A stretch of DNA of 64,000 nt from an uncultured Methanosarcinales archaeon (GCA_964388715.1 CAYMBN010000002.1:80704-144703), one strand, 5' to 3'; shown: positions 1-37,445, counted from the first letter of the stretch. Translations and numbers: made by a program. Notes: generated by a model not told the origin, from the sequence alone.

Positions 1-1986
1 GTCAATATCAATGTTAGGATTGTCTGGTTCGTGTATAATTGTTGGTGCAACTGCGCAAGTGCTTGATGTGTCATAGAAGTAAACACTTGCATTGGTTGGT
101 TCTGTTGTAATCCACATTAATAAACTTGAATTTGTTGTTACATCTTTTGTATGGTGTTTTATTCTTGGTGGTTGTGTGTCTGAAGCTGGATTGTAAACAC
201 CTGAACATGAAGGCCATAATCTACAATCTTCATCATTGCAATCAACTTTGCTATCATAATCTTCGTCAACATTGTCAAAGCAGTTTGTTTCTATTTTGAA
301 GAAATCATACTGTACATCATATTGTGAGTCACATGATTCTGGGTATAGGTTACAATCAATAGGTGTGAAGTTATAATAACCTGAACTGTTTTCTGTTCCG
401 TCTGTACTGTAATTAAATGATGAGAAATTAGTGTAACAGAATGAATAGTTTGAATCCCATGCGCAAGGTTCTATGCTTAAATTACATGAAATTAATGTTA
501 AACATTCACCACAATGATCATCACAGTCCATTGAATCCCAGTCAGGGTTACAATATTGTGTATCATTGTTCCATACACAACTTGCATTTAAACATCCTGT
601 TTCATTTCCATCTTGTGATGGGCAATTTGAATAATTACCTGAAGCATTTCCAATTGCTACAAGTGAGGATGAAGACCATGAACTATATAATTGACTATCA
701 TAACCTCTAGCAGTACAGTTCCATGTTGAATCATATGTGACAATGCCTGGGTTAACTGTTTTGTTTGTGTAACATACTGTGTTATTGTCGCATGGAACTG
801 TTGTTGTCCAGAAATTCTTGAGTATACTGTTTTTGTACCATCTGAATGTTACATTTATTGTTAATGAAGTATCGTCAGTTACATTTGTTGAACAGTTTAA
901 TGTAGTGTTTGCACTTGGTGATGCAGGAATTATCTGTGGTGTTGTTAATGTTGGTGCAGTGTTTGCAGCTGGTATATTGAATTTGTGTGTTGTTGCTAAT
1001 GAATTTATGTTGCCTGAGGTATCATTACATTTGTAATATAATGTATAATTATTTTCATTGGATAAACCTGAGTAATTGAACCAATGTGCTGTTGTACCTG
1101 TTGTTGTGAATGGTGTTGCTTGTGTTGCATAGTTAAATGTTTCATTTGTTAGATTATATCTACAGTTTGCATTTGCTGTTGTTGTGATGTTAATCCATGT
1201 CCAGGTTGTGCCAGCAGCAACTTGTGAGTTGTTTGTTGGGCTTACTATTGAGATTAGTGCTCCTGTTACTGTTAAATTAGCTGTTTTTGATGCATTAAAG
1301 CCTAGGTAACTTGCATTGACACTTATAGCATATGTTGATGATGATATTGGTGCTGTGAGTGAAAGGTTGTATTCTCCGTATGAATCTGTTAACCATAGTG
1401 TTTGTTGTGATGTATTTTGTTCTTTTGTGTAGAATATTTTTGTGATTAATCCTGATTTAAAGTTGTAGGTTGTGCTAACTAAGTTGTTGTCTGAATCTGT
1501 TACATTTACTGTTACATTCCATTGGCCATACTTTGTTACTTTGTATGAATTTGATTCCCAGTATGAGCCTTGGTTTGTACCTTGGGTATTGTTTAATACA
1601 TATGTTCCGTTTGGTGCTATTATTGTGAAGTTAACTTGGGAAATGTCATTATCAGTATCTGTTACTGTTGCTCTTATTGTGATTGTTTGGTTGAATGCAA
1701 CTGGTCTTGGATTACTGTACTTATCTGTTATACTTGGTGATTGGTTTGCTGATAGTGTGTAAATATATCCTGTGTTAATTACATATAAGCTTGAGTTTAC
1801 TGCTGGACTAAATGATCCTAGTGTTGAATGTATTCTTGCTGAGTATGATGTTGAGGATGGTGTGTCTGCTATATGTCCTATTATAATGTTATCTACTGTG
1901 TAATTTGATGATGATGCATTAAATGCTAATGATAGAGGTATAAGTAGGAAAATCATTACTATCATGCTTAGTAATTTATTTTTCAT
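1..1986 (-). CDS. Secreted, heavily N-glycosylated cysteine-rich surface protein. This is the 5' part only; the gene continues beyond the window start.
   Basis: Read on the minus strand from ATG at 1986..1984, the frame stays open to position 1. The N-terminus (MKNKLLSMIVMIFLLIPLSLA) is a signal peptide. The protein is dense in N-x-S/T sequons and has a Cys-rich module near the window edge. The ORF track omits it, probably because it has no in-window stop. The plus-strand ORFs at 441..1762 are antisense shadows of it. Confidence 0.55.
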   Translation of the reverse strand, partial: MKNKLLSMIVMIFLLIPLSLAFNASSSNYTVDNIIIGHIADTPSSTSYSARIHSTLGSFSPAVNSSLYVINTGYIYTLSANQSPSITDKYSNPRPVAFNQTITIRATVTDTDNDISQVNFTIIAPNGTYVLNNTQGTNQGSYWESNSYKVTKYGQWNVTVNVTDSDNNLVSTTYNFKSGLITKIFYTKEQNTSQQTLWLTDSYGEYNLSLTAPISSSTYAISVNASYLGFNASKTANLTVTGALISIVSPTNNSQVAAGTTWTWINITTTANANCRYNLTNETFNYATQATPFTTTGTTAHWFNYSGLSNENNYTLYYKCNDTSGNINSLATTHKFNIPAANTAPTLTTPQIIPASPSANTTLNCSTNVTDDTSLTINVTFRWYKNSILKNFWTTTVPCDNNTVCYTNKTVNPGIVTYDSTWNCTARGYDSQLYSSWSSSSLVAIGNASGNYSNCPSQDGNETGCLNASCVWNNDTQYCNPDWDSMDCDDHCGECLTLISCNLSIEPCAWDSNYSFCYTNFSSFNYSTDGTENSSGYYNFTPIDCNLYPESCDSQYDVQYDFFKIETNCFDNVDEDYDSKVDCNDEDCRLWPSCSGVYNPASDTQPPRIKHHTKDVTTNSSLLMWITTEPTNASVYFYDTSSTCAVAPTIIHEPDNPNIDID

Positions 1987-2453
1987 TTAATACCTCTTAG
2001 CATTTTTTTGTTTTTTATTTTGTAGAAGACAAATTTACCTTGTCTTCTAGATTCGATGATGTTTGCGTTTTCTAGCACTTTAAGGTTAAGAGAAATAGTA
2101 GGCTGGGCTTTGCCTACGATAGAAACTAGTTTTGTTGCAGCTTTTTCTCCTTTTAGAAGGGAAAGAACGATTTTTAGTCTTGTTTCATCTGCGAGTGCTT
2201 TTAAAACTTTAACATCTTGGATGAGTGTAATTATGTTTTTATCTTTTATTTTGTAGAAAATGAACTTGCCTGATCTTCTTGATGTGATGATGTTTGCGTT
2301 TTCGAGAACTTTGAGATTGAGAGAGATTGTTGGTTGTGCTTTTTTGATGATTGGAACTAATTCAGTTGCAGCGTGTTCTTTTTTTAGGAGGGATAGAACT
2401 ATCTTTAATCTAGTATTATCTGCTAGTGCCTTTAATGTTTTTACCAGCTGCAA
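1983..2453 (-). CDS. Tandem-duplicated ArsR/SmtB-family winged-helix transcription regulator (two HTH domains in one 156-aa chain)
   Basis: Two about 75-aa repeats each match the ArsR HTH pattern (LKALADETRLKIVLSLL...ELV...AQPTISLNLKVLENANII.SRR.GKF.FYKI). Its stop overlaps the start of the downstream surface-protein gene as ATGA at 1983-1986. Confidence 0.6.
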   Translation of the reverse strand: MQLVKTLKALADNTRLKIVLSLLKKEHAATELVPIIKKAQPTISLNLKVLENANIITSRRSGKFIFYKIKDKNIITLIQDVKVLKALADETRLKIVLSLLKGEKAATKLVSIVGKAQPTISLNLKVLENANIIESRRQGKFVFYKIKNKKMLRGIK

Positions 2454-2537
2454 CTTTTTAGCCCATTATATTTATATACTTAAATATTTAAATATATAAA
2501 TATATAGCTTTATATATAAATTTAACTGTTTTTTTGT

Positions 2538-2668: not shown

Positions 2669-2676
2669 GTAGAGAA

Positions 2677-4146
2677 TTAGCTACAAATCTCTTCTTTTGG
2701 ATGATCTTTGCAGATTATTTGTTTGATTTGGTTGATTTGTCGTTGTTGTTCTATAATATAAATATGTGCTTCTTCTACTTTTTCCATAAGTAATTCATCA
2801 ATACTTCCAATTTCATATGGGCTTGCTAATTTTGCTCCTGGAAATCTTGCAAGATGTCTGTTTTCTTTTAAATATGGTTCTAGTTCTTCTAATGGTACTC
2901 TGTAATAATCTTTTGCATTTATTTTATCTTCTTCTTTTACTTTACCATCAAAAAATATATCAAATACAAAATCTAATTCAGTTACTCCGTCTTTGTAAAT
3001 TGAACCTGTTGCATTTATATCACCATCAACAGTTAATTTGTTTACAGGATTATCTGTTCCAATGCCAACTCTTTGGTTTGTATCGTTAGCAACAAACCAT
3101 CTTGCACCTTGTGTGAATAAAGGTTTAGATTCATTTCTCATTTCTTGTGATCCATTAATTAAACTAAATGAACCATATCCTTCAATGTTTTCATTATCAT
3201 CAATGTGTATGTATCTATAGTTTGGTGCGCTAGGATGATGTGCTCTTCCTGCACGGTAATCTCTTAGGATTTCTTCTTCTGTTAGGTCTCTGTTGTGTAT
3301 AAGTAAAACTTCGTCAATAGTTACATTGTTATTATTACCATTACTATCTTCACCAAATGTGATTGAACCTCCAAAATTAGTTGCATTATTTGTCCAAGTG
3401 TCGTTAACTGCAAATTTAAGGATACCATCACAGTACATTCTAAGACTTCCTGTTTCTGTTCCGACATCAGCGACATCCCAAATAACAGCAATGTGGTGCC
3501 ATCTTTTTTTTTGGTCTGTACAATGTAAATTCTGTCTTAAATAACCCATAAAATATAAATTCATGTTTCCAGCAGTGTTGTAATTATAAATCATAATTCC
3601 ATTGTTTGCATCCTGAATTTCAAACCATTCTTGTGCATTTTTTCCACCATAATGTTGAGCCCATAACATTAATGTTCCTTTTGATCTGTTAAAGCCACTT
3701 GGTGTAGTGTACATTGTTTCTGTTGTTATTGATGCGTTCATAGCACCACCAAATTTACCATTAGTGATAAAAGTAGTATTGTGGAATGTTGGTTCACCTA
3801 GGCCATAACAGTCAGTTGTTCCGTCAAAATGACACAAAAACATTAATTCACCTTCTTCAACATATGCTGGACTTTTGCCTGATTTGTTTGCAAAGTAACC
3901 ATATCTGGAGTCAAATCCATCGTTAGTGGTTATTGTGCCATTTACATCTAATTTATTGTTAGGTGATGTTGTTGAGATTCCAATCCTAGCATTGGTTTCA
4001 TCAATAAATAATCTGTCAGTGCCAAAGCTTAGGTTTGTGTTAGTAAGTTTGAGATAGTTTGTTGCTGAAGAAACTGAGATTGCTAAAGCTATTGCTATAG
4101 CTAGAAGAGATAGTGTAATTATGATTTTTTTTGGTTTGTTTTTCAT
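2677..4146 (-). CDS. Secreted LamG (concanavalin A-like lectin) domain protein with fibre-like VGIGT..P.NKL.V.G motifs and a C-terminal coiled-coil
   Basis: It has an N-terminal signal or TM segment. The LamG signature is present (WHHIAVIWD...LRMYCDG...ITFGED...VTIDEVLLIHNRDLTEEEI). It lies 4 nt downstream of the 2924-aa gene. Confidence 0.6.
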   Translation of the reverse strand: MKNKPKKIIITLSLLAIAIALAISVSSATNYLKLTNTNLSFGTDRLFIDETNARIGISTTSPNNKLDVNGTITTNDGFDSRYGYFANKSGKSPAYVEEGELMFLCHFDGTTDCYGLGEPTFHNTTFITNGKFGGAMNASITTETMYTTPSGFNRSKGTLMLWAQHYGGKNAQEWFEIQDANNGIMIYNYNTAGNMNLYFMGYLRQNLHCTDQKKRWHHIAVIWDVADVGTETGSLRMYCDGILKFAVNDTWTNNATNFGGSITFGEDSNGNNNNVTIDEVLLIHNRDLTEEEILRDYRAGRAHHPSAPNYRYIHIDDNENIEGYGSFSLINGSQEMRNESKPLFTQGARWFVANDTNQRVGIGTDNPVNKLTVDGDINATGSIYKDGVTELDFVFDIFFDGKVKEEDKINAKDYYRVPLEELEPYLKENRHLARFPGAKLASPYEIGSIDELLMEKVEEAHIYIIEQQRQINQIKQIICKDHPKEEICS

Positions 4147-4150
4147 GGTA

Positions 4151-7100
4151 TCACCTTAATCCTATTAAAACGTTTATTTTACATTCTGATTTGTAACAAG
4201 GTTGCATTGCTTTACCTAGTATTGCACCAAAATCGTTTATTGATGCTTTTTCTGCATAACCTTTTTTAGAGCTTGTTGTGAGTAATTCAAAGGATTTTAT
4301 TGGTCCTTTTACTTTTGTTTTTACAATACCAACAATACCTACTGCATATTTTCCGTTTTGGCTGTTACCAATTATTGTTGGTTTTTCTGAAACAACACCT
4401 GCAACAGCTGGGTTTGCTTTTGAATCACATTTTTTAACTTTGTAATCTGTTGTTAAGCAAACAACATCTCCTGGTTGTAGTTTTTCATCTGAGTCAAACA
4501 TTTCTGCAAAGTCTGCGCCTGATGATGTTATGTTTCCACCGATGAAGAGGTTTTCTGTTATGTTTGTGGTTCCGACAACATGTAATTCTTGATTTGGTGT
4601 TGCTGTTCCAATACCAACTTTATTTTCTGAAACATCAACAAACAAATCTGTACTGTCAACTTCTAAATCTGCACTTAATTGTAACTTATCCCATATCTCA
4701 ACTTGTCCATTTCCTCCTTCAATTGCATCTAAACTAATATTTGTTGTTGAACCTAAAATATATTTGCCAAAGTTGTTGTATATGGTTAGATTTTCATTAT
4801 TGACACTCCAATTAATGCTATTAACACTAGTTATCTGATTCCATCCCATATCCAAATGACCTGACATAGTGTCTCCTGATTCGTTTACGTAAAGGTCTGT
4901 TGCTGTTATTCCTGATAATTGTGAGCCATCTCCTATGAAATAAGTAGCACTTACATTATTTGTTACATTAACATTTTTAGCAACACTTAAATCACCGCTT
5001 GTCATGATACCTCTGTCACCAACAACAATACTATCTCCTGCGTAAATATTATGTCCTACAATCATGTTTTCTTTGACATTAATTGATGAAGCTTCTAAAC
5101 TACCTGTTGATAATGTAGGTGTTCTTATACCATCAAGTTCTGTTATTGTTAACATGTCATCATCAAGACTAGTAGTGTAGATATATTTTCCGTCAACAAA
5201 TAACCCTCTTACACTGTCAAAGAAATTTGCATCTTTTTTTCTAAGGACTTGTGTTGGGTTTGTTTTATTTGAAACATCAATTATATAAAATTCATCGTCA
5301 GACAAGTCTGTTAAATAAGCATAATCACCTTGTACTGTAATATCTGAATATTGTGCACCAGTAGCTACATCGTCATAAGTACCTACAATGTTTGGATTTG
5401 TAGGATTGCTTATATTAACAATACTCATTACACCGCCTGCTAAACAAGCTACATAAGCATAACTACCTGAAACATATACATCATAAGCACTTGGTAAGTG
5501 TGTTGAGTTTACTAAACTACCTACTATGACTGGTGAAGATGGTATTGAAACATCTATTACAAAGAATTCATGATCATCATCTGCAACAGTGTAAACATAC
5601 TTGCCTTGTGCATATACTCCGCCAACATTGTCTTCAGAGAGAGTAGATAAGAATAATATGTTGTTAGGATCTGAAATGTCATAAATATTAATTGTATTTC
5701 CAGCACCGGTTGAAAGATAAGCATATTTTCCTTGTACAAATACTTCATTTGCTCCATTAACAACTACTGTACTAATATATGAAATATTAATTGGGTTGGA
5801 AACATCAAATATTGAAAATCTGTCTGCAGTATATCCTGCAACATAAGCATATTTTCCTAAAATAAATATTCCTCTTGCATCATCAAGTAATGTAGCATTT
5901 TCATAAGTGCTTACAATTATAGGTCTTTTTTTATCAGAAATATCTATTATTGAGAAACTGTTATTGGTTGATGCAGTTACATAAGCATATTGTCCTTGTA
6001 CATAAACTTCTTTTAAACCATCAAGGACTTGTCCAGATATACTACTTATTACATTAGCACCACTTGCATTAGTTCTAAGACTTCCACTTAGATTGAATTC
6101 TCCTGTTAGGATGTCACCTGAGGAGTTTACCCAGACATCTGTTACTGATGCTGTTATTCCTGTTAATTGTGAACCGTTTCCGTAATATAATCCTGTTACG
6201 TTAAGGTCATCAGTAAGCTGAACTGTACCGCTAGTAGTAGTTAATTCTAAGTCACCAGAACTACTCTCTATAACACCTTTTGTGAACATATCACTATAAT
6301 ACATATTGATATTACCAGCAGCACCACCAGCGACTTTAAAACTATTCATACTTCCGTTCACTAATAAACTACCTACAGATAATGTGTCAGTGGCTTCATC
6401 CCAAGTAAAGTTGGCATCTGCACCCATGCTTGATACATCATTGTATTGAACTTGTGAATCAGAACCTCCTGGTGTTGCTATTACATCTGTTAATTGTGAG
6501 CCGTTTCCGTAGATTAAGTCAGTAAAGTTGATGTCTCCTTGGACTTTTAGTGTGTTTGTTGGAGTGGTTGTGTTGATGCCAACGCTTCCATTATTGTTAG
6601 TGTAAACATCATCTCTTGAAACCCATGAACCGCCAATTTCTTGATGATCATTGATACCCATTTGGTATAATGTTTTGATTTCTGTTAGTGATAAGGTTCT
6701 GTTGTAGATTCTTACTTCATCTATTGTTCCGTTGAAAAAGTGATTTGCTCCATCATTTTTACTTCCAATAGCAATAGAACCAGTTAGATTAGGTGCATCA
6801 TAAGTTTTAGCAGTGCCTAACTGAATACCATCTACATATGCCAAACCTTTTGTTGCATTAAAAGCATATACAATATGGTGCCATACATTGTTGCTAGGAG
6901 AACTTCCAAATTGTTGCCAGCTTCCGTCATAAAAAGCCAAGTCATTTGATTGATTATAATTTAAAGCTAATCTGTTGGTTTGTGAATCAAACAGCATATC
7001 ACCACTACCAGTACCACCATGATATTTTACCCAAAATGAGAAGGTATAAAGTCCACCTGTGGCAGTAAAACCTGTTAAATCAATAGAATCATTCTCACCA

Positions 7101-12925: not shown

Positions 12926-13085
12926 TTTTTGTTATTGTTTTTTGAATTAATCCAAAATCATAGAGCTTTTGCTCCATTAGTTCTCTTGCAAGCATTGATT
13001 TCTTTTTACCAATTTTTTTTGAAGTGCTTTCAAGAAGTAGATTAATCTCTTTAGATACAGTAATTCTGATCTGTACATTAGACAT
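12915..13085 (-). CDS. Small ribbon-helix-helix (CopG/Arc-like) DNA-binding protein of about 56 aa, overlapping the start of the 2924-aa gene by 11 nt
   Basis: Its translation is MSNVQIRITVSKEINLLLESTSKKIGKKKSMLARELMEQKLYDFGLIQKTITKNEK. The beta-strand followed by two helices is typical of RHH proteins. A TATA-like tttaaata sits about 25 nt upstream. It is below the ORF-track size cutoff. Confidence 0.5.
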   Translation of the reverse strand: MSNVQIRITVSKEINLLLESTSKKIGKKKSMLARELMEQKLYDFGLIQKTITKNEK

Positions 13086-13160
13086 GTTTATACTTAATAT
13101 TGTATAAATATTTAAATGTTTCGGTAAGAATTATACTTTATTTATGCTAAATAATGTATA

Positions 13161-17084: not shown

Positions 17085-17454
17085 TTCGATTAACTAAGAC
17101 AGCAATTTCATGATAAGTTAGTTTGAGTTGTTCTTTTAAGAAACGTACAACAACTTCAAAAACAGATAATCTTCTGTCAATAAAGACCTGTAAAGGGATT
17201 TTAATATTTGACTGCTTTATGGGGGATTTAGAACTCTTTTTCCTTTTTTTTAAGGTTCTATTGTATGCAGTCCATATAGTTCTTTGATCCCTGTTGATCA
17301 AGAAAGCTATCTCATGATAAGATAACTTTTTTGTTTCTTTTAAATATTCTACAAGAATTTCTAGGACAGCAAGTTTTCTGTCACAAAATAAAGAAACAGG
17401 GACAAGAATATTAGAATTAATACTGTATGTATTAAAATCCCCTTTTTTGACCAT
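17026..17454 (-). CDS. Tandem-duplicated sigma70-region-4-like HTH DNA-binding protein (142 aa)
   Basis: It has two copies of the motif (I/L)P(L/V)..F.DR.LS..E..V.(F/Y)LKE..KL(S/T)YHEIA.L.NR.DRTIWT.YNRA.K. This aligns to sigma-70 region 4 (LSxRErxVlxLRf...TlEEiA...vtRERIRQIExKA). It is tightly coupled to the downstream 1307-aa gene. Confidence 0.5.
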   Translation of the reverse strand: MVKKGDFNTYSINSNILVPVSLFCDRKLAVLEILVEYLKETKKLSYHEIAFLINRDQRTIWTAYNRTLKKRKKSSKSPIKQSNIKIPLQVFIDRRLSVFEVVVRFLKEQLKLTYHEIAVLVNRNDRTIWTVYNRAKNKNQNA

Positions 17455-17546
17455 TAGTTAATACTTACGATGTAGGTATATATAAATCTTTTGTTTTTAG
17501 ACTACAAAGGATTATGTTTACTTACAATGTAAGAATTATTTAATAA

Positions 17547-19399: not shown

Positions 19400-19400
19400 T

Positions 19401-24310: not shown

Positions 24311-27300
24311 TTTTTCTTATTTTTTTATTGTGTTTTTTATGTTTCCTTTTCTTGTTTCTTTTTTTTGGTTTTTTTTGAAAAGTTTTTAACTTTTCTAAAC
24401 CTTTCTTTGAAAGTTTCTTTTTTGTTTTGTGTTTATGTTTCTTTTTTTTGGAAACTTTGGTTTTTTGAGAATGTTTTTTGTGTTTGTTTTTCTTCTGTTT
24501 TTTTGATTTCTTCTTCTTCTTTTTCTTGGTTGTTTTTCCTTTGGATAATTCTATTGTTAGGTAAGTTAAAACTATGATTGATGTGATAATTAAAGTCCAG
24601 ATAGAAGGTTTTTCAGGTGAAGTAAAAACACTTAGTAACATTGCTTCTAGATCAAGTTTTTCAAATTCTTCTTCCTCTTCTTCTAGAGTTTCTTCTTCTA
24701 TTTCTTCTTCAGGAAGAGCTGTTTGATTTTCTTCAGCTTCTTTTTCAATAATTTTTGTTGTGGCAATTGCAAAATAACTGAATCCAGGAGTTGTTGCTTT
24801 GTATATGGTATAATTATTGTTTTCAGAAATTATTTTTGTAGGAAGATTATTCCATTTACTGTTTTTGTATCTTTTTAATACAATGTCTGTTTTATTTACT
24901 TTATTTTTTTCTAGCCATTCTTTTGAAACTTTGAATTGAATTTCTGCATTTTCTATTACACCATCTACTAAATTTTTGGTTCTACTTACTTGGGCATATT
25001 TGTAAACAAGAGTTTTTATTTTTCTACGTGTTTCAGGTGCTTGTGTTAACTCTATAACACTGATTTGTACATTTTTTAATTTATTCTTGGTTGTAGCTTC
25101 TAATTTTGTGATTGGAATTTCTTCTTTGTCAGGGGACATTTCTAATGTGTCACTAGCTTTGATTGACGTCCAAAGTTGAGTTGACTTTTCTCCTTTAATT
25201 GTTGGTTCTTCTATGACAAAACCATCTCCGCTGCTTGATGAACTTGATGATGATGTTGATGTTGAAGTTGATGTACTTCCTGCAACATCTGTTGTGTAAT
25301 TTGTTGAGTTTGAGTATGTCATTACGTTACTATTTTTATCAGAACATCTTACAAATAAGGTTCCTGTGTTGTCTGTTGTGAAGCTGAAATTAGTAGTATG
25401 GCTAAGGGTTCCTGTTGTTGAAAATGCTGTCATATTACCATAATATAGGTTTGAAGTGTTATAAGCGCAATTTGCATGTTCATTTGTTGTTACATTTAAT
25501 ATTAATATGACTGTTGATGTGCCTGTTCCTGATGCTGTGTAATTTAGATCTGTTATTATTGGGATTGTTCCATCTTTGATTGAAAAGTTTCTTGGAGAAC
25601 TAATAGAGCTTCTTTGGTTTTGATCAGTACAATTTAATGTGTAGTTATAAGTTCCGTTGAGGAGATCACTGTAGTTATGCATGTGTGTATAACGTACCCC
25701 TACATTAGTAAAGTTTGTTGTATTTATTGTTCCTGATTGAACATTGCCTGTTGCGTTTGTTATATTATATCTGCAGAAGGTTGTGTTTGGATTTGCTTCC
25801 CATACATCTGCAGAAACTTGAACGAAACTATCTGCTGATTGGTTTGTATTATTTGTTGGTCCTGTTATGTTTATTGTTGGTGCAACTGTATCATTTGCTA
25901 AGCCTGCTCCTGATAAATGCGGTACGTAAGTTGTTACATTTAATGAACCGTTTGTGTAACATGCTGCTGTTATATTGCCAACAGTGCTTGGAGCTGTGTT
26001 GCCTGTACATTGAGCTAACTTGTAAACATTGTGACCAAGGTCATCGTCTACATACATTACTTCAAAGTCTTTTAATGTTTCGTTAAATACAATTGTTGTT
26101 GTATTATAATAAGTATCATTTAGGAAACTGCTCATGTTTTGGAATAAAACTAATTTTGTGAAGTTTGTTCCTGATTTGTTTTTGCTTAAGTTTGCTGGTA
26201 GAGAATGTTTACTTACAACAATTGTAAAGTCTGTTCTGTTCCAGTTTGCTAACGATGAGTTGAAGCTTGGCATTGTTACAGAATAGTTGTCTGTTGTTGA
26301 TGCGTTAACTTCAAATTCCATACTTACTGAATTATTCATCCAAGCAACACCACTTAGTTCTGTACCTGATGAGTTTTTGATAGAAACGTTTACAACTCCT
26401 GTATTTCCTGTTTCAATTGAGTTAGCTCTTTCTGTTATGTTTTCTTGTCCTATTACTCTAAATGTTCTTGATACTTGGGTTGCTAAGTTACTTGCTTCAT
26501 CTTTTACATTAAATACTACTGTGTGTGTTCCTCCACTAATATTATAAATTGTAATGTTAGTTGCATTTGCTGTTGTGGTAAGTACCCATTGACCAGAGTC
26601 TACTGAGAAGTTTGATAAAGAAATGTTTGCTTCTGTTACACTATAATTAAATGTTACATTTCCATTTGCATTTGTTATTATTTGATTGTTTGTTGGAAGT
26701 GTTACATTAATTATTGGAGCATCATCATCTATTGTGAAAGTGATTCCTGGACTTGTTATTGATGTGGTATTAGTGTTGTTTGCAGTGTCAACAACTGTTA
26801 TATTAAGCACTTGATCTGAGCCTAGAGTAATTGTTCCATTCCAGGTAGAGTTAATAGATTTATTTAATGTTGTTCCTTCTACAACTACTGTGGTTATACT
26901 TGTTTTTAGGTCTGTTGCATTTACTGTTGCTATAACTGCAGTTGATGTTTGTACATAACGGTCTGAGATAGTAAAATTAAAGATTGGAGGAGTGTTTTCA
27001 ATTATAAATGTATAATTAGTACTATTGAATGCACTGTTTCCTGCATTATCATAAGCAAGACAGTTCCAGATAAAAGTACCATTTTTCAGTATGTCTAATG
27101 TTCGGTTTGTTGAGTTGCTTGTACCTGTTATGGTTGCAGTATAGTTTAGTGCCCATGATCCTGTTGAGTTTGTGTAAAAGCTTACATTAGTCAAGTTTTT
27201 ATTATCAGTGAGACTACAATTTAAGTTTACAGAATAATTTGAAGTATTATAATTGTTTACAGGGCTTGTTAGTCTTACTATTGGTGCTGTTTGATCTACG

Positions 27301-30300
27301 TCAACAGTAATGTTGTAAGTTGTACTTGCTCCTATGTTTCCTGCATTATCAGAACAGTTAACAGACCAGTTGTAATCTGCATTAGCTAATGATTGAATAA
27401 AGGTTAAATTAGCTATTGATTTATTAATGCTGCTGTTGGTTTGATTAACTGAATTATTAATTATTAAACTGCAATTGTCAATATTTAAACCATCTGTTAC
27501 ATTGTAGAAGAATTTTATGTTTCTGTTTGAAGTATTTTTGGTGTTGTTTGTAGGTCTTATTAAAGTAACTGTTGGTGCTGTGGTTTCAACAGTCAATGTG
27601 TAATTACTACTGCTCCAGTTTCCTTCACTATTTTGGTCATAAGCAAGACAACCCCATTTGTATGTGCCAACTGTTAGTGCACTTATTGTGATATTGGTTG
27701 AGTTACTGGTACCTGTTACATTTCCAGTGGCATTTAATAACCATGACCCTGTTGTGTTGGTGTAGAAACTTATGTTAGTTAAGTTAGTATTATCGGTTGA
27801 AGTACAGTTAAATGAAATAGATGTTTGAGATGTGTTGTAGTTGTTAACAGGACTTGTTAGATTTACTGTTGGTGGAGTGTTTGTTACATTAACAGTAAGA
27901 TTGTATATATCACTGTTATCTACATTACCAGCAAAGTCTGTACAATTGACAGACCAGTTATGTATTCCATTTGGAAGAGTTTGACTAAATGGAATACTAC
28001 TTACTGCTTTGTTGATTGTAGTATTAGTTACATTTATTGTTTTGTTTAAAATTAAAGTACAATTTTTTATACTTGATAATGCGTCTGTTACATTGAAATA
28101 AAAGTTAATGCTTTGACTAGTGGTATTAAGTGTATTGTTTGGAGGTGTTACTAGAGTTACTGTTGGGTTTGCTCTGTCAAATGTTATTGTTTTATTTGAA
28201 TTGTTCCATGCACTGTTTGAATTACTATCAACGCACAGAACATTCCAAATAAATCTTCCTTGTGGGAGGTTATTAAGTGTTATGTTTGTTAAAGCACTTT
28301 TTGTAGGGCTACTAACTGTTTTGTTTAGTTGCCAAGTACCTGTGAAATTAGTATATAAACTACAATTACTTACTGTTCCATCATCTGTTACAGTTAAATT
28401 AAATTCAAGAGAAGTTACTGTTGTGTTGAAATTATTTTCAGGATAGTTAAGTACTACAACTGGTGATGAAACAGGATATATTTGTTCTGTTGACCATGTA
28501 CTTGCTTTTAGGCTAGAGTCAATTGTTTGAACTGCCCAATAATATGTTTGGTTACTTATATTCAATAAAATGTTTGTGTTGTTTAGCATGTTACCAAACA
28601 TACCTTGTGGTGGGGAGTTGCTTGTGCCATATTCACCACTGACAATATTATTTGCACCTGAGGAATTTCCCACTCTTAGGTTATAATATAATGTTCCGCC
28701 TTGTGTATCAGAAGCGCCTGACCATGATAAGTTAAGTCCTGTGGTATGGTTGCTGCTAAATGTGATTGGTGCATTAGGAATATTATTGTCTGATGTTATT
28801 GGATTAATATAAATTGTTGAATTATCACGAACTTGGTCTCCAACTAAAATTAAATCAAGATTATTATCTCCATCTAGGTCTGTTAATAATCCTGATCCTT
28901 TTTGTACTGTACCACTTGAGCCTGAAGTTGGTAAAATTTTTCCTGATATATTATCTTGGATAAATCTTGAACCTGTGTTGTTGTAAAGAAGTACACTATC
29001 AGCAGTAGTGCCCCCTGGTACAAGTACTAAATCAACTTTACCATTATTATTATAATCTCCTGGATAGATTGCAAGTTCTCCAGTTGCTGTGAGGTCTGTT
29101 ATCCAACTAGAATTATAATAGAAACTTGTTTTGTTGTTAAAGTATATATCTAATCCATAACTTCCACTGAATTGTCCTGAAACAGCTAAGTCCATCCAAC
29201 CATCATTATTAAAATCAGCTACTGCTGAGAATGGGTGTGTGTTACCTGATTGGTATAATCTTAAACCAAATGAATAAGTTGTGTTAAGTTTGAATTCTGT
29301 TTTATTATTTGTATAAACTTGGGCTGTAGTAGTAGTTATTATAACTAGGTCAAGGTAGTCATCATTGTTAATATCAATCAAATGGGCTGTACCATCTGTG
29401 GTTCTTGTTAAATTATTTTGCCATGGAAGACTTTCACTAAAGGTTGTTCCATTGTTTGTGTAAACTTTTGATGAACTATTACTATTATTTTCTTGTCCTA
29501 TTATTACTAAGTCAATGTCACCATCAAGGTCAATGTCTCCTTGTACAATTGCTGCGTCTTTTACTTGTGTTATATTTTCTTGCCAAGTAAAGTTTTCTTT
29601 GAATGTTGTTCCATTGTTTATGTATATTTTTGTACTTGAACCTCTACCATCATCACCTGCAATAATTATATCTGTATCATTATCATTATCAAAATCTCCT
29701 AATGCAATAGAAGGTGTAGTAACATTGGTTATATTTTCGTTCCATGTTGTGTTTTTATTGAATGTATTACCATTACTTGCATATACATTAGCAAGTGGAG
29801 CAGTTCCATTGTCTCCTAGAATTATGAGGTCAAAGTTTCCATCTTTTAAAAAGTCTCCAACTGCAATTGCAGGTGTTTGTACACCAAGTAAGTTAGCATG
29901 CCATGATGCATTTGTTGAAAAAGCTTCTATGATGCTTGATGAAAGATTTAAGAAACTAATGTTGTTAGAACCATTACAAGTTACATTAATGCCAGCATAG
30001 AATGTACCTGTACTTGAATCGCTTACATTTAATTTGAATGTTGTTTTAGAGTAAGGACTAACACCTTGGATAGATGATACATTTGTTGTTAAATTATCTA
30101 AACTGTGATAATTAGTTAAAGTGATAGTCATATTGTCACTTGATGCTTGGCTGTTGATTATATCAATATAATAATTACCTGTTGTGTTAACTCCAACATA
30201 ACCATGGAAAGTAGAATCATTAAATCTTCCTGAGCCTCTTGAAGTGCTTAATGATAAACTTATCCCTGCTGTTATTGATGTTGATCTTATTGGTAAATAA

Positions 30301-33300
30301 TCTATAAATTCTTCTCCACCTCCACCACCTACACTTTCTTCAGATGAATTGTAAATATTATCACAAATTCCGTTAGCATTTGCATCATAACAACCTTCAA
30401 TTGGTGTATCTTTAGCAGTCCATCTGTTACCATAATTAGAATTGTTAAAAGTGAGGTTGTTTGCATTTTGTGTTCCTGTAAATGAACCAGAACTAACAAA
30501 AGTGTTTCCTGTGAATACAGTGCCATTGGATACTCCGTCTGGACCCATGTTAAAGTTAAAATCTATTTGACTTCCTGAGTTATCTACATTGTTGAATGTG
30601 TTATTATAAAAGAAGTTGTCATGTGAACCATCAAATCGAACTCCTCTTACTTGATTTTTGCTTATATTTGAATGGTTAAATGTGTTGTTATGAGATCTTA
30701 ATAGATAAATTCCTTGGTCAGTGTTATTGATTATGGTTAGGTTGCTCAAGAAGCTTAGGTTTGTACCATTTAGGTAAACACCTATTGTAAAGTTTGAGAT
30801 TGTACAATTTTCAATTGTGATATTTTTTCTTCCACTTATATTGATACCATAAAAATATCCGCCACTACTTGAACTAGTACCATTACCTGTTAAATTATAT
30901 CCTTGGCAGTCTAATCTTATGTTATCAGCTGAGATATGGAAACATGTTGAAGCGTTTGTAACATTTTGTGTTAATTTATAATTTCCACCTGCTGTGTTTA
31001 AATTTTGACAATTATTGATGTTAGTACTAGTATCAAATTCATAGGTTTGTTCTGCTGACCATGCACTTCTTTTTAAACTAGAATCAATTGTTTGGACAGC
31101 CCAATAATATGTTCTATCACTTTGATTTAATAGAACTTGGGTATTGTTATGCATGTTACCATACATACCTTGTGAAGGGGAGTTACCTGTTCCATATTCA
31201 CTAGATATAATATCATTTCCACCTGAAGCTGTTCCTACTCTAATATTATAATATAGTGTTCCTCCTTGTGTATCAGAAGCACCTGACCATGATAAGTTAA
31301 GTCCTGTAGTGACATTATAATTAAATACAGAAGGTGCTGTTGGTGCATTATTGCTGGATATTCTGTTATTAGTATAAACTTTTGAAACTGCTCCAGAATC
31401 ATCTCCAGCTATGATTAAATCAAGATCATTATTACCATTAATATCAACAAGTAATGGTGATCCTTTTTGTATTCCCATTCCACCTACACCAGTATTGCTT
31501 GGCAAAAATTTTGCATATGTTGTGTCAGAAGTGAAAACCTTTCCAGTGTTATTGTATACAAGAACACTTTCCCCAGTATTACCTGAAGATACAAGTATTA
31601 AATCAATTTTACCATCATTATTATAATCTCCAGGATAGATTGCTACTTCTCCACTTGTTGAGAAACCTGTTACCCAACTTGAATTATAATAAAAACTTGT
31701 TTTGTTATTAAAATATACATCTAATCCAAAGCTTCCGCTAACTTGTCCTGATACTACAATATCCATCCATCCATCATTGTTAAAGTCAGCTGATGCCATA
31801 TATGGATGATCATTACCTGATTGATAAAATCTTAAACCATTTGAGTAGGTTGTGTTAAATAAGAATGCTGTTTTGTTGTTTGTGTAAACTTGTGTTATTG
31901 TTGTTGTTATTATAACCAGGTCAAGGTAATCATCATTGTTAATGTCAATTAATTGGGCAGTACCATCTGAAGATCTTGTTAAGTTTTCTTCCCATGAAGA
32001 GTTTTCATTAAAGGTTGTTCCATTGTTTATGTAAACTTTGGATGAATCATTGCTATTGTTTTCTTGCCCTATTATTACTAAGTCAACATCACCGTCTAGG
32101 TCAATGTCACCTTGTACAATTGCTGCATTTTGTACTGGTGTGATATTTTGTTGCCATGATAAATTTTCATTAAAGCTTGTTCCATTGTTTATGTATATTC
32201 TTGTGCTTGCACTACTAGTATTGAAACCAGCAATAATCATGTCTGTATCATTGTCATTGTCAAAGTCTGCTAGTGCAATGCTTGGGGTAGAAACATTGAT
32301 TAGGTTTTGGCTCCATGTTGTATTTTTGTTTAATGTTGTTCCATCACTTGTATAAATATTCATAAGAGGATTACTACTACCATCATCTCCAACAATAATT
32401 ACATCAGGATTTCCATCTTTTAGGAAGTCAGCAGATCCAATTGCAGGTGTTTCTGCAGCAACTAAATTAGTTTGCCAGGTTGAACTTGCAGCGAAAGCTT
32501 CAATAACACTTGTTGAAAGATTTAAGAAACTAATGTTGTTAGAGCCATTACAAGTGGCATTAATACCTACAAAATATGTGCCATTGGTTGAGTCACTTAC
32601 ATTTAATTTAAATGTTATTCTTGAATAAGCACCAACATTCATAAATCCTGTTTGGTTTGCTGTTAAAGTGTTTAAACTATTGTAGTTTGTTAAAGTGATA
32701 GTTACATTGTCAGTTGATGCTTGGTTGTGAATTACATCAATATCATAAGTACCATTATCATTAATTGCAACATAACCATGGAAATTAGTATCATTATATT
32801 GTCCTGTTCCATTAGATGTACTTAAGGATACTGTTATTCCTGCTGCAATTGACTGTGATCTTATTGGAAGATAATCAATAAATTCACTGTCTCCACCTCC
32901 ACCACCTCCGCTTGCAACAGTGGAATTGTAAATCTCATCACAGATTCCATCAACATTTGTATCATAACAAGTTTCAGCAGGAGTGTCTTTAGCAGTCCAT
33001 CTATTACCATAATTAGAATTATTAAAGGAAGCATTATTTGCGTTTTGCATACCATTAAAGCCAGTTGCATCAGTAAAAATGTTACCTGTAAATACAGTAC
33101 CATTTGATTTACCACTTGAACCCATATTAAAGTTTATATCAATTTGATTTCCATTATTGCCATTGTAAAATGTATTATTGTAAAAGAAATTATAATGTGC
33201 TCCATCAAAGTAAACTCCTCTTGCTGAATTATAACTTATATTTGAATGATTGAATGTGTTGTTGTTTGATCTTAATAAATAAATTCCTTGGTCAGTGTTG

Positions 33301-33686
33301 TTAAATATAGTTAAGTTACTAAAGAAACTTAGATTTGTATCATTTAAGTAAATTCCTCTTGTGTAATTGGTTATTGTACAATTTCTAACAGTAATATTTT
33401 TTCTTTTGGTAATGTTGATACCATAGAAATATCCTTGATTGCTTGTGCTAGTACCATTGCCTGTCATAGTATATCCTTGACAATCTAGAATAATATTGTC
33501 TGCTCTAATATCAATACATGTTGCACTACTGTTTACATTTTGTGTTAAAGCATAGCTTCCACCTGATGTGCTTAGATTTGTACATGCATTTATATTGATA
33601 GCATAAGCAAATGAATTATAAAGTAGGAAGACAAAAATTAAAATAATCAAACTCTTCAAATTTGTTTGAATTTTGTTTTTAACCAT
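24291..33686 (-). CDS. Giant surface protein (3131 aa) with signal peptide, two copies of a beta-helix (NosD/PbH1-like) + FG-GAP/VCBS propeller + FN3-like unit, Ig-like repeats, a Ser/Thr stretch, a PGF-like motif, a C-terminal TM helix and a roughly 90-aa Lys/His-rich tail
   Basis: The beta-helix N-terminus (ININACTNLSTSGGSYALTQNV...CIDIRADNIILDCQGYTMTG) is duplicated as STNINNCQNLNTAGGNYKLTQNV.... FG-GAP motifs (DFDNDNDTDMIIAG, DIDLDGDVDLVII) are present. The C-terminus reads TTPGFSYFAIATT ... SIWTLIITSIIVLTYLTIELS followed by K-rich sequence. Confidence 0.65.
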   Translation of the reverse strand: MVKNKIQTNLKSLIILIFVFLLYNSFAYAININACTNLSTSGGSYALTQNVNSSATCIDIRADNIILDCQGYTMTGNGTSTSNQGYFYGINITKRKNITVRNCTITNYTRGIYLNDTNLSFFSNLTIFNNTDQGIYLLRSNNNTFNHSNISYNSARGVYFDGAHYNFFYNNTFYNGNNGNQIDINFNMGSSGKSNGTVFTGNIFTDATGFNGMQNANNASFNNSNYGNRWTAKDTPAETCYDTNVDGICDEIYNSTVASGGGGGGDSEFIDYLPIRSQSIAAGITVSLSTSNGTGQYNDTNFHGYVAINDNGTYDIDVIHNQASTDNVTITLTNYNSLNTLTANQTGFMNVGAYSRITFKLNVSDSTNGTYFVGINATCNGSNNISFLNLSTSVIEAFAASSTWQTNLVAAETPAIGSADFLKDGNPDVIIVGDDGSSNPLMNIYTSDGTTLNKNTTWSQNLINVSTPSIALADFDNDNDTDMIIAGFNTSSASTRIYINNGTSFNENLSWQQNITPVQNAAIVQGDIDLDGDVDLVIIGQENNSNDSSKVYINNGTTFNENSSWEENLTRSSDGTAQLIDINNDDYLDLVIITTTITQVYTNNKTAFLFNTTYSNGLRFYQSGNDHPYMASADFNNDGWMDIVVSGQVSGSFGLDVYFNNKTSFYYNSSWVTGFSTSGEVAIYPGDYNNDGKIDLILVSSGNTGESVLVYNNTGKVFTSDTTYAKFLPSNTGVGGMGIQKGSPLLVDINGNNDLDLIIAGDDSGAVSKVYTNNRISSNNAPTAPSVFNYNVTTGLNLSWSGASDTQGGTLYYNIRVGTASGGNDIISSEYGTGNSPSQGMYGNMHNNTQVLLNQSDRTYYWAVQTIDSSLKRSAWSAEQTYEFDTSTNINNCQNLNTAGGNYKLTQNVTNASTCFHISADNIRLDCQGYNLTGNGTSSSSGGYFYGINISGRKNITIENCTISNFTIGVYLNGTNLSFLSNLTIINNTDQGIYLLRSHNNTFNHSNISKNQVRGVRFDGSHDNFFYNNTFNNVDNSGSQIDFNFNMGPDGVSNGTVFTGNTFVSSGSFTGTQNANNLTFNNSNYGNRWTAKDTPIEGCYDANANGICDNIYNSSEESVGGGGGEEFIDYLPIRSTSITAGISLSLSTSRGSGRFNDSTFHGYVGVNTTGNYYIDIINSQASSDNMTITLTNYHSLDNLTTNVSSIQGVSPYSKTTFKLNVSDSSTGTFYAGINVTCNGSNNISFLNLSSSIIEAFSTNASWHANLLGVQTPAIAVGDFLKDGNFDLIILGDNGTAPLANVYASNGNTFNKNTTWNENITNVTTPSIALGDFDNDNDTDIIIAGDDGRGSSTKIYINNGTTFKENFTWQENITQVKDAAIVQGDIDLDGDIDLVIIGQENNSNSSSKVYTNNGTTFSESLPWQNNLTRTTDGTAHLIDINNDDYLDLVIITTTTAQVYTNNKTEFKLNTTYSFGLRLYQSGNTHPFSAVADFNNDGWMDLAVSGQFSGSYGLDIYFNNKTSFYYNSSWITDLTATGELAIYPGDYNNNGKVDLVLVPGGTTADSVLLYNNTGSRFIQDNISGKILPTSGSSGTVQKGSGLLTDLDGDNNLDLILVGDQVRDNSTIYINPITSDNNIPNAPITFSSNHTTGLNLSWSGASDTQGGTLYYNLRVGNSSGANNIVSGEYGTSNSPPQGMFGNMLNNTNILLNISNQTYYWAVQTIDSSLKASTWSTEQIYPVSSPVVVLNYPENNFNTTVTSLEFNLTVTDDGTVSNCSLYTNFTGTWQLNKTVSSPTKSALTNITLNNLPQGRFIWNVLCVDSNSNSAWNNSNKTITFDRANPTVTLVTPPNNTLNTTSQSINFYFNVTDALSSIKNCTLILNKTINVTNTTINKAVSSIPFSQTLPNGIHNWSVNCTDFAGNVDNSDIYNLTVNVTNTPPTVNLTSPVNNYNTSQTSISFNCTSTDNTNLTNISFYTNTTGSWLLNATGNVTGTSNSTNITISALTVGTYKWGCLAYDQNSEGNWSSSNYTLTVETTAPTVTLIRPTNNTKNTSNRNIKFFYNVTDGLNIDNCSLIINNSVNQTNSSINKSIANLTFIQSLANADYNWSVNCSDNAGNIGASTTYNITVDVDQTAPIVRLTSPVNNYNTSNYSVNLNCSLTDNKNLTNVSFYTNSTGSWALNYTATITGTSNSTNRTLDILKNGTFIWNCLAYDNAGNSAFNSTNYTFIIENTPPIFNFTISDRYVQTSTAVIATVNATDLKTSITTVVVEGTTLNKSINSTWNGTITLGSDQVLNITVVDTANNTNTTSITSPGITFTIDDDAPIINVTLPTNNQIITNANGNVTFNYSVTEANISLSNFSVDSGQWVLTTTANATNITIYNISGGTHTVVFNVKDEASNLATQVSRTFRVIGQENITERANSIETGNTGVVNVSIKNSSGTELSGVAWMNNSVSMEFEVNASTTDNYSVTMPSFNSSLANWNRTDFTIVVSKHSLPANLSKNKSGTNFTKLVLFQNMSSFLNDTYYNTTTIVFNETLKDFEVMYVDDDLGHNVYKLAQCTGNTAPSTVGNITAACYTNGSLNVTTYVPHLSGAGLANDTVAPTINITGPTNNTNQSADSFVQVSADVWEANPNTTFCRYNITNATGNVQSGTINTTNFTNVGVRYTHMHNYSDLLNGTYNYTLNCTDQNQRSSISSPRNFSIKDGTIPIITDLNYTASGTGTSTVILILNVTTNEHANCAYNTSNLYYGNMTAFSTTGTLSHTTNFSFTTDNTGTLFVRCSDKNSNVMTYSNSTNYTTDVAGSTSTSTSTSSSSSSSSGDGFVIEEPTIKGEKSTQLWTSIKASDTLEMSPDKEEIPITKLEATTKNKLKNVQISVIELTQAPETRRKIKTLVYKYAQVSRTKNLVDGVIENAEIQFKVSKEWLEKNKVNKTDIVLKRYKNSKWNNLPTKIISENNNYTIYKATTPGFSYFAIATTKIIEKEAEENQTALPEEEIEEETLEEEEEEFEKLDLEAMLLSVFTSPEKPSIWTLIITSIIVLTYLTIELSKGKTTKKKKKKKSKKQKKNKHKKHSQKTKVSKKKKHKHKTKKKLSKKGLEKLKTFQKKPKKRNKKRKHKKHNKKIRKNAKKKH

Positions 33687-33924
33687 TTTTTTTCTTTACC
33701 CTATTATAAACTGTCCAGATGTTTCGTTCATCTCGATCAAGGACTAGAGCAATTTCATTATAGCTTAGTTTTTCTTCTTCTCTTAGATATTTTACAATTG
33801 CTTCAAGAGCAGTAAGATTGTTGCCACGAAAGATGTAAGTAGGAAGGGTTAGTTTGGAAATAAGATTAAGAAAATCTTTACTAATAGTCACTCTTTTTTT
33901 CTTATAATAGCTGTTTTTTCCCAA
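33679..33924 (-). CDS. Small sigma70-region-4-like HTH DNA-binding protein (81 aa), paralogous to the 17026..17454 gene
   Basis: It reads TLPTYIFRGNNLTALEAIVKYLREEEKLSYNEIALVLDRDERNIWTVYNRVKKK. Its stop overlaps the 3131-aa gene start by 8 nt (AATGGTTAA). Confidence 0.5.
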   Translation of the reverse strand: MGKNSYYKKKRVTISKDFLNLISKLTLPTYIFRGNNLTALEAIVKYLREEEKLSYNEIALVLDRDERNIWTVYNRVKKKNG

Positions 33925-34099
33925 TTTAATAGTAATAATATGTGTGTATATTATTTATAAATGTTTCGGTTTTTTATGATTTTTTACATTTTTTACACAT
34001 TTTTTAACGTTTTTTAGGTATATTTTGTTGGAAATTTTAGCTTAGAATGGATTTTTTATACATACAGAAGATGTTATTGGTTGATAAAAGAAGAAAAGG

Positions 34100-36506: not shown

Positions 36507-36552
36507 GTTTGATTAGAGAGAGCAGTTATATTTAAATTTTTGGAAATATTAT

Positions 36553-37365: not shown

Positions 37366-37445
37366 TATTTGAATTGGAGAATATTCTAGTTTATATAATT
37401 TTTGATTAGTTTAAAAGAATTAAAAAAAATAAAAAAATAAAACAT

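Follow-up and report, generated by a model that had tools for sequence, protein, structure and literature searches.

The stretch of DNA examined here, 64,000 nucleotides (nt) deposited as an uncultured Methanosarcinales archaeon (GCA_964388715.1, CAYMBN010000002.1:80704-144703) and called the window throughout, carries on its minus strand a 34-kb block of genes for surface proteins. This block divides into four units, each headed by a small DNA-binding gene, and it is probable that the four are autoregulated, translationally coupled surface-glycoprotein operons in which the small gene encodes the regulator. The small proteins belong to three families: a tandem ArsR protein, a 56-amino acid (aa) ribbon-helix-helix (RHH)-like protein, and two proteins of 81 and 142 aa (HTH81 and HTH142) built from helix-turn-helix (HTH) domains that resemble region 4 of sigma factors. 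Judging from its homologues, the organism is a DPANN archaeon of the Woesearchaeota/Nanoarchaeia type: no close homologue came from outside this lineage, and elsewhere the window encodes archaeal chromosomal housekeeping functions (Topo VI B, LonB, Elp3, NurA/HerA and TYW1). Most DPANN archaea have not been cultivated, and they are believed to live attached to a host, with giant surface proteins as the main candidates for host contact; those of the cells described here are probably used for host attachment. No published account of the control of DPANN giant surface proteins was found, and the conserved arrangement described below points to a lineage-wide self-regulating switch for surface proteins.

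Between positions 1 and 33990 the minus strand holds a series of open reading frames (ORFs) that is unbroken to 33924 and lies exactly where an initial annotation, made from the sequence of the window, had placed a single-strand 34-kb locus; all of its ORFs were confirmed. The surface proteins encoded in the block measure >662, 489, 2924, ~1290, 316, 301, 361, 1275 and 3131 aa, and the only sizeable intergenic gaps stand 5′ of the four small genes. At three junctions the proposed overlaps between small and large genes were found to be exact: 4 nt between the tandem ArsR stop and the start of the >662-aa gene (ATGA, 1983-1986), 11 nt between the 56-aa and 2924-aa genes (12915-12925), and 8 nt between HTH81 and the 3131-aa gene (33679-33686). 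The start assigned to the 1307-aa ORF is probably wrong. The first 17 codons come from reading the conserved C-terminus of the HTH protein out of frame, an artefact that recurs in the related locus L009, and the true start is likely the ATG at 17033, which shortens the product to ~1290 aa. With this start, HTH142 and the ~1290-aa gene overlap by the 8-nt ATGNNTAA, the same geometry as at the HTH81 junction. An obvious Shine-Dalgarno sequence is missing at three of the four giant starts, and the large genes, whose starts are overlapped by the stops of the small ones, have no space in front of them for a promoter of their own.

The description of the first small gene as an ArsR duplicate was borne out by Pfam HTH_5, which matched the protein over two stretches (75.4 bits, cutoff 22, E 3e-21), and by NCBIfam NF033788, which also matched two stretches (149 bits, cutoff 55). 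The curated model of the SdpR autorepressor scored 99.8 bits, 0.2 bits short of its cutoff of 100. The sequence contains no Cys and a single His and thus lacks the metal-sensing residues of the family (CXC in alpha-3, His/Asp/Glu in alpha-5); for this reason, the protein is not a metal sensor.

A nearly invariant helix, R-D-E-R-N-I-W-T-V-Y-N-R, marks the domain common to HTH81 and HTH142. Their similarity to sigma factors was below threshold at the sequence level: Pfam Sigma70_r4_2 gave 23.9 and 17.5 bits and missed its gathering score of 25.7, the NCBIfam sigma models stayed far below their cutoffs, and a search of PDB sequences with the HTH family profile returned just a marginal match to sigma-H region 4 (E 0.16). 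The AlphaFold2 (AF2) model of HTH142 was confident (pLDDT 84) and consists of two copies of a small helical domain. Foldseek placed each of them on region 4 of SigR, SigD and SigE with a root-mean-square deviation of 0.5-0.9 Å over 43-46 residues, and on SigW domain 4 with 2.6 Å over 53 residues; target TM scores of the sigma region 4 matches were 0.63-0.75, and the SigE and SigW structures are DNA-bound. The predicted structure confirms the sigma-4-type HTH fold that had been proposed for these proteins. They consist of the region 4-like domains alone, one or two per chain, with no sigma region 2, and because of this they are not sigma factors.

The HTH family has no Pfam or NCBIfam model. 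A full hidden Markov model scan showed that it comprises at least 2,197 clusters at 50% identity. The first, word-indexed search gave ten relatives, and scanning by pattern a collection in which each GTDB species has one genome gave 75 loci, almost all of which carry the label Woesearchaeota, Nanoarchaeota or Nanoarchaeia, and some the label uncultured Methanosarcinales. The 75 loci contain 82 HTH ORFs, of which 45 have two domains, 34 one, one three and two four. Two or three single-domain HTH genes were seen in tandem 5′ of one small anchored protein (L012:2968-3565, on the same contig as L003; L025:681-1111; L014:9992-10416), and in L003 two tandem ~47-aa RHH genes precede a 2227-aa giant. 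Duplication of regulators, whether into separate genes or into fused domains, is therefore frequent.

The 56-aa protein belongs to a highly conserved family with >644 homologues (protein clusters) that are 70-80% identical, 30 of the 56 positions being invariant; all named members are from Woesearchaeota or Nanoarchaeota. The RHH fold assigned to it in the initial annotation is plausible rather than proven, with moderate support. In the AF2 monomer, residues 1-11 are unstructured and are followed by helices at 12-25 and 27-55, the RHH strand forming only in a dimer. Alignment by hhalign with an approximate CopG sequence covered the strand, helix A and the turn (48% probability, E 1.8e-4). A RelB-like model matched weakly (17.5 bits, cutoff 50), as did DUF6290 in 13 of 35 relatives. 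The window protein reached no curated RHH model at threshold and belongs to no Pfam family; Foldseek on the monomer model was uninformative, and a PDB sequence search with the family profile found no match.

That the large proteins are secreted or membrane-anchored and rich in N-glycosylation sequons agrees with what was found: all nine large and medium proteins of the window have an N-terminal hydrophobic segment, and in the four giants N-X-S/T sequons are 2-3 times more frequent than in composition-matched shuffles (z 6.6-14.7). As to the domains claimed for them, LamG, beta-helix, FG-GAP and LVIVD were detected by Pfam, while the Ig/FN3-like matches were all below threshold. The 361-aa protein matched Peptidase_M64 (PF09471, 39.3 bits, cutoff 26) and carries the zinc-binding HExxH motif as HELGH, in line with the proposal that the locus encodes its own M64-like protease, with a putative role in the processing of surface proteins. 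Two proteins end in unusual tails: the 3131-aa protein in a transmembrane segment (TM) followed by 85 aa that are mostly K/H/N (24291-24560), and the 316-aa protein in a TM followed by an extremely Lys-rich tail (17547-17640). On the cytoplasmic side, these tails could interact with nucleic acid or with lipid.

The adjacency of small and large genes, whose absence from relatives had been named in the initial annotation as the mark of a coincidental arrangement, proved strongly conserved in all three families. The HTH statistics were taken from loci of Woesearchaeota/Nanoarchaeia genomes, each species being represented by a single genome in the searched collection. Among the HTH ORFs with a downstream call, 64 of 75 overlap the next gene, most commonly by 4 nt. 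The tightly coupled partners (66, 23 of them cut by contig ends) include 27 of at least 1000 aa, against 14 of 628 flank genes (odds ratio 30, p 1e-20); with complete ORFs only, the proportion is 13 of 43 against the same 14 of 628 (p 5e-10). An N-terminal hydrophobic segment is present in 45 of the 66 partners and in 191 of the 628 flank genes (odds ratio 4.9, p 3e-9). LamG and cadherin-like giants are among the HTH partners, and so are small anchored proteins of ~135-240 aa.

The RHH family was examined at 62 metagenome loci. An overlap with the following gene was seen for 40 of 57 copies, and the products of 51 of 57 partner genes begin with a hydrophobic stretch (signal or anchor). Of the 37 complete partners, 30 come from a single family of ~700 aa, which lacks any Pfam match and whose N-terminus, KKAQVTIFIIIG, is pilin-like (class III); an example is L117:10153-12249, and the family occurs among L086-L152. 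This family has no homologue within the window, where the RHH gene heads the 2924-aa gene. Four RHH partners reach at least 1000 aa. One RHH-coupled giant, of 2665 aa (L089:10165-18162), contains an intein/Hint domain (Intein_splicing E 1e-18). Relatives of the tandem ArsR gene were examined in five contigs, which hold three distinct proteins; in four of the contigs, with two of these proteins, the relative overlaps by 4 nt a gene for a signal-bearing or membrane-anchored protein. Their partners measure from 271 to at least 617 aa, those of P0132 are sequon-rich, and BLAST found no similarity between them and the >662-aa protein of the window; the link is therefore to a class of protein and not to one orthologue.

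Other giants in the flanks of the related loci are preceded by unrelated ~48-aa RHH genes (L003/L011, L065, L082), so the design recurs with different regulators; a local phmmer search of the 75 HTH loci with the RHH and ArsR proteins of the window gave no matches. Of the proposed cassette of a mini-regulator and a mega-adhesin, then, the pairing is conserved, but the partners are exported or anchored surface proteins generally, from 134 to >3300 aa, among which giants are strongly enriched without being exclusive, and the usual RHH partner has ~700 aa.

The promoters of the small genes carry repeats that differ from family to family. An unbiased k-mer count over the 160 nt upstream of HTH genes returned the palindrome TACTTACAWTGTAAGTA and its variants, and the 9-mer ATGTAAGTA was present in 34 of 77 HTH upstream regions and in none of the control segments. 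The core ACTTAYA occurs at least twice in 37 of 76 HTH upstream regions compared with 12 of 280 other intergenic regions (p 5e-19), and most of these 12 are the same intergenic region read from the divergent gene. In the usual layout one copy stands upstream of the TATA box and the other between the TATA box and the start codon, and the two copies of a locus are more alike than copies from other loci. At the HTH142 promoter of the window the distal site, TTCTTACATTGTAAGTA, is a perfect palindrome 57 nt from an imperfect proximal copy. The pair is unique within the 64 kb; the half-site ACTTAYA occurs across the window at the rate expected by chance and is meaningful just as paired sites at this promoter.

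For the RHH family, the k-mer test identified the heptamer GTATAAA in 32 of 49 promoters and one of 116 controls, and the motif WAGYHTAWA occurs at least twice in 27 of the 49 and in one of the 116. The 20-nt repeats of the window's own RHH promoter contain this motif (AAGTATAAA / TAGCATAAA). A reading of this promoter as split half-sites of the HTH142 palindrome was dropped, the proximal AAGTATAAA being a copy of the RHH family's own repeat. At the tandem ArsR promoter a 38-bp palindrome is kept at the same position in L153/L154 and L157 and is conserved in three distinct loci. Thus, each of the three families has its own repeats or palindromes flanking its TATA box and conserved across species, and these are candidate operators. 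They lend independent support, from promoter sequence, to the earlier guess that the units may be autoregulated.

These observations are consistent with the following course of events. Transcription would start at an archaeal promoter, with a B recognition element (BRE) and TATA box just 5′ of the small gene, and would yield a message with a short leader or none that includes the large gene. The small protein, we infer, binds the paired repeats flanking its own TATA box, as a homodimer or, in the case of the tandem ArsR and the two-domain HTH proteins, as a single-chain pseudo-dimer. The single-chain view of the two-domain proteins fits a weak trend in the palindromes, full copies of which precede 11 of 31 single-domain and 6 of 44 two-domain HTH genes (p 0.048). 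Archaeal repressors classically bind between TATA box and start codon, and protein bound at the proximal site would block RNA polymerase; the presumed sign of regulation there is repression. The distal site, ~55-60 bp upstream, may serve activation or cooperativity. By these means the small protein would set the transcription level of its own operon. Most ribosomes on the large gene would come straight from the end of the regulator gene, through termination-reinitiation at the 4-, 8- or 11-nt overlap, a coupling that has been established experimentally for overlapping stop/start pairs in archaea (PMC6728339, PMC10666635). Regulator and giant would be made in a fixed ratio, which would turn the regulator into a read-out of operon output and allow the feedback to gauge the production of a costly giant protein.

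Several points weigh against autoregulation by these proteins or narrow its basis. The relatives, ~140 loci in all, are without exception metagenome-assembled genomes or metagenome sequences, the gene calls in the window and in the relatives follow plain ORF logic, and the control set of flank genes leaves out ORFs cut by contig ends. WAGYHTAWA was derived from the same sequences in which it was counted, a circularity from which the heptamer k-mer test is free. About half of the HTH loci have no core motif recognizable by a simple pattern. Within the window, the HTH81 promoter has no canonical family palindrome, just ATGTRTA-type repeats, and this unit is the least well explained of the four. 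The 38-bp palindrome of the ArsR promoter is AT-rich and overlaps a TATA-like sequence, and it could be partly compositional. The conservation of the RHH family, far above that of typical operon-specific autoregulators, hints at an additional or different role. Finally, some members of the HTH family occur as tails of giant membrane proteins, described next, which suggests that the relatives include membrane-tethered DNA-binding tails and that simple autorepression by a free protein accounts for only part of the picture.

Among the best 150 representatives of the HTH family, ~15 are proteins of 779-5919 aa. In six of them (P0252, P0253, P0258, P0268, P0280 and P0380) a C-terminal TM and an RRKRKK stop-transfer sequence are followed directly by two or four HTH domains. 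The open frame of one such giant-TM-HTH fusion was verified in DNA (L037:20-10576), and the fused giants span 838-5919 aa. Over 414 residues, the ~1290-aa protein of the window shares 43% identity with the N-terminal portion of one fused giant. In addition, the anchor is preceded by a conserved coiled-coil module of ~75 aa (consensus ...EISRSEYEKLLSKLLDGKSEREW...), N-terminal and cytoplasmic, in 8 of the 66 HTH partners, encoded 3′ of the HTH gene in L013, L017, L028, L045, L047, L051, L057 and L077, and in three of the four fused giants examined (P0253, P0268 and P0380). The predicted order of coiled-coil module, TM and extracellular domain amounts to an anti-sigma-like topology beside a sigma region 4-like gene.

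These forms speak for an alternative in which membrane-linked signalling acts instead of, or on top of, feedback: the surface protein would hold or control the HTH protein at the membrane, and release or capture of the HTH protein would report the extracellular state. Such a system would resemble ECF sigma/anti-sigma pairs, SdpR/SdpI or tethered regulators of the ToxR type, with the HTH domains of the fused forms as a permanent tail in the cytoplasm. In the six giants read and in L037 the HTH domains stand directly after the C-terminal TM; the coiled-coil module would provide a point of contact in other partners; and the HTH fold is that of sigma region 4, the domain gripped by anti-sigmas. 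The near-threshold SdpR score of the tandem ArsR protein goes in the same direction, SdpR being sequestered by the membrane protein encoded beside it (PMC2910880), as does the tendency of translationally coupled pairs to encode interacting proteins (PMC10666635). However, the partners in the window have just 11-12 residues before their signal or anchor and offer no cytoplasmic domain for the HTH protein, so the signalling model in its simple form is inapplicable to the window. The N-terminal module is found in a minority of partners, the fusions could be tolerated read-through of adjacent genes, and signalling would be compatible with autoregulation, since the candidate operators remain. On balance we regard it as unlikely, whether in place of the feedback scheme or in addition to it. 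A related and equally doubtful proposal concerns the family at large: many Woesearchaeota and related Nanoarchaeia might share a pathway that senses contact and acts on DNA through the HTH proteins, in which giant adhesins would carry the HTH domain as a cytoplasmic tail, possibly released by proteolysis, or would capture the co-translated free HTH protein through the cytoplasmic module. Such a pathway would be an archaeal analogue of sigma/anti-sigma or SdpR/SdpI systems; host attachment would rewire which surface operons are transcribed, and the shared half-site ACTTACA would let paralogous cassettes of one genome cross-regulate.

The small ORFs might instead be mainly translational launch pads, leaderless 5′ ORFs with efficient initiation from which reinitiation feeds the giant gene, with the DNA-binding fold secondary. 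The lack of obvious Shine-Dalgarno sequences at three of the four giant starts, set beside the internal 489-aa gene that has one, and the dominance of 4-, 8- and 11-nt overlaps in relatives agree with such a role. It leaves unexplained why three unrelated DNA-binding folds are under strong purifying selection (a nearly invariant recognition helix in the HTH family, 30 invariant residues in the RHH family) and why the promoters carry family-specific repeats. A pure launch-pad role is therefore insufficient, and we consider it very unlikely.

An integrated virus or mobile element was also weighed as the source of the cassettes, in which case the link to surface proteins would be incidental. Archaeal viruses are rich in small RHH and winged-HTH genes, and the ArsR and HTH proteins gave weak PHROG matches. 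Against this, no relative of the HTH or RHH family was found in 2.9 million viral contigs, the block is like the remainder of the window in GC content and is flanked by housekeeping genes of the chromosome, neither integrase nor capsid genes were found, and the RHH family, with its >644 clusters, has named members in Woesearchaeota and Nanoarchaeota only. A viral origin was rejected on these grounds as highly improbable. Coincidental adjacency of frequent small regulators and large genes, for which there is nothing beyond the prior that small HTH genes are common, has a negligible likelihood and was ruled out by the overlap adjacency kept across dozens of species in three independent families and by the enrichment of long secreted partners (the comparisons with flank genes above).

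The preferred reading, autoregulated and coupled operons, has counterparts among characterized systems. Similar in gene order are the ArsR/SmtB first-gene autorepressors, especially SdpR-SdpI of Bacillus subtilis (PMC2910880), where a small winged-HTH gene comes first, a membrane-protein gene follows, and the promoter holds a palindrome. The window differs in having two fused ArsR domains that do not sense metal, an archaeal host, and a large secreted glycoprotein as partner in place of SdpI, a polytopic immunity protein. Bacterial extracytoplasmic function (ECF) sigma/anti-sigma operons resemble the HTH units in the region 4 fold, in the overlap with the next gene, whose product crosses the membrane once and has a large extracytoplasmic portion, and in an apparently autoregulated promoter. 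In contrast to them, the HTH proteins have no region 2 and contain one, two or four region 4-like domains, archaea use TBP/TFB, the candidate sites are palindromic or repeated around the TATA box and are not a −35 element, and the partners in the window have no anti-sigma-like domain. CdrS-FtsZ2 of haloarchaea is a parallel for the RHH unit in that a conserved archaeal RHH protein of at most 70 aa is encoded directly upstream of a structural gene; CdrS is a transcription regulator with defined DNA sites and is co-transcribed with ftsZ2 (PMC8406309). The partner here is a secreted surface protein (2924 aa; usually the ~700-aa pilin-signal protein), and the 56-aa protein is a putative RHH protein whose kinship with CdrS is conjectural.

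CopG/Arc/MetJ autoregulators of plasmid copy control and toxin-antitoxin systems are tiny RHH proteins with gene overlaps and promoter repeat arrays, to which the 56-aa protein and the candidate sites in its promoter can be compared. The family of the 56-aa protein stands apart in its chromosomal location and extreme conservation and in its coupling to exported proteins, with neither a toxin nor a replication gene. At the head of Bacteroides capsule loci, UpxY and UpxZ give each surface locus its own small regulators. The likeness lies in parallel surface loci with their own regulators and possible cross-talk, and the difference in the proteins, NusG-like antiterminators and inhibitors there and HTH/RHH DNA binders here. 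The giants themselves match the known LamG/beta-propeller surface proteins of DPANN archaea, described as large, strain-specific and secreted, occupying a sizeable share of the genome and proposed to act in host contact (PMC5498576, PMC6792436). A full-text literature search returned no description of the small-gene coupling in this lineage, of the HTH family, of its candidate operator or of the giant fusions. Giant DPANN LamG proteins and first-gene autoregulators (ArsR, CopG, SdpR, CdrS) are thus known, and the systematic coupling of the two in this lineage appears to be new; the fused and module-bearing forms could well prove more novel still.

The conserved rule of a small DNA-binding gene overlapping a surface-protein gene comes with candidate operators that can be tested without cultivation, and it may help to predict which large ORFs of these genomes are surface proteins. 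The HTH family adds a large group of proteins for which Pfam and NCBIfam have no model, tied by natural fusions to giant membrane proteins. Annotation would gain as well, for the small ORFs are easily missed and the start codons of giants are often mis-set into the upstream HTH frame.

Table 1. Genes and promoter elements of the surface-protein block, in window coordinates.
Feature	Position	Strand	Basis or detail
>662-aa secreted surface protein, 5′ part, leaves window end	1..1986	-	Signal-like N-terminus; 42 sequons, z 6.6
Tandem winged-HTH protein of ArsR/SmtB type, 156 aa; single chain with two HTH_5 domains	1983..2453	-	Pfam, NCBIfam
38-bp AT-rich palindrome, tandem ArsR promoter, candidate operator	2467..2504		19-nt arms, 95% complementary
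489-aa secreted LamG protein, last gene of RHH unit	2677..4146	-	Pfam; own Shine-Dalgarno GGTGA
2924-aa surface protein	4151..12925	-	Pfam LamG x3, LVIVD x5, chlorovirus glycoprotein repeats; 124 sequons
56-aa RHH-like protein, highly conserved Woesearchaeota family	12915..13085	-	Homologues, AF2, hhalign
RHH-unit promoter	13086..13160		BRE/TATA 13109-13123, flanked by 20-nt repeats 13087-13106 and 13141-13160
~1290-aa membrane-anchored LamG surface protein	13161..17033 (longest ORF, 1307 aa, to 17084)	-	Pfam
HTH142, two sigma region 4-like HTH domains	17026..17454	-	AF2, Foldseek
HTH142 promoter	17462..17535		Proximal imperfect operator-like site ACCTACATCGTAAGTA 17462-17477; TATA 17477-17486; distal palindrome TTCTTACATTGTAAGTA 17519-17535
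316-, 301- and 361-aa secreted or membrane proteins	17547..20486	-	ORFs; 361-aa protein is M64-like metalloprotease
1275-aa membrane-anchored right-handed beta-helix (NosD-like) protein	20483..24310	-	Pfam
3131-aa surface protein	24291..33686	-	Pfam FG-GAP x12; 220 sequons; C-terminal TM at ~aa 3029
HTH81, single-domain sigma region 4-like HTH protein	33679..33924	-	Sequence profiles
HTH81 promoter	33925..34066		BRE/TATA 33952-33968; short repeats ATGTGTA / ATGTATA / TACACACA at 33941-33950, 33988-34000, 34051-34066

A few further observations concern the setting of the block (Table 1). A near-identical contig is present in JGI metagenome 3300009405. Past the locus the minus-strand run continues at 34807-38936 with ordinary cytoplasmic and membrane genes (NUDIX, an MJ0043_C-domain protein, an MscS channel and NurA), and single-strandedness is therefore not peculiar to the surface-protein block.

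ARAGORN and Rfam (gathering cutoffs) found nothing over the whole window, and a permissive Rfam search of two odd intergenic regions gave no meaningful match. One of the structures seen between genes is a 122-nt strongly structured element on the minus strand (2538-2659), between the 489-aa gene and the tandem ArsR promoter; it has no Rfam match and by eye is not tRNA-like. Its long closing stem has GGTTTGTCCCAA/TTGGGACAAACC as the outermost 12 bp, and the minimum free energy is −47 kcal/mol (z −5.3 against shuffles). The other is a tRNA-Cys(GCA)-like gene on the minus strand (34098-34264) with apparently three introns, in the D-loop, the anticodon loop and the T-loop, the unspliced form of which was missed by ARAGORN and Rfam. 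When three segments were removed in silico in ~32,000 splice variants, tRNA-Cys(gca) was the commonest ARAGORN call (3,601 of 16,614 calls), the other variants being called tRNA-Ala, tRNA-Leu or a tRNA of unassigned anticodon.

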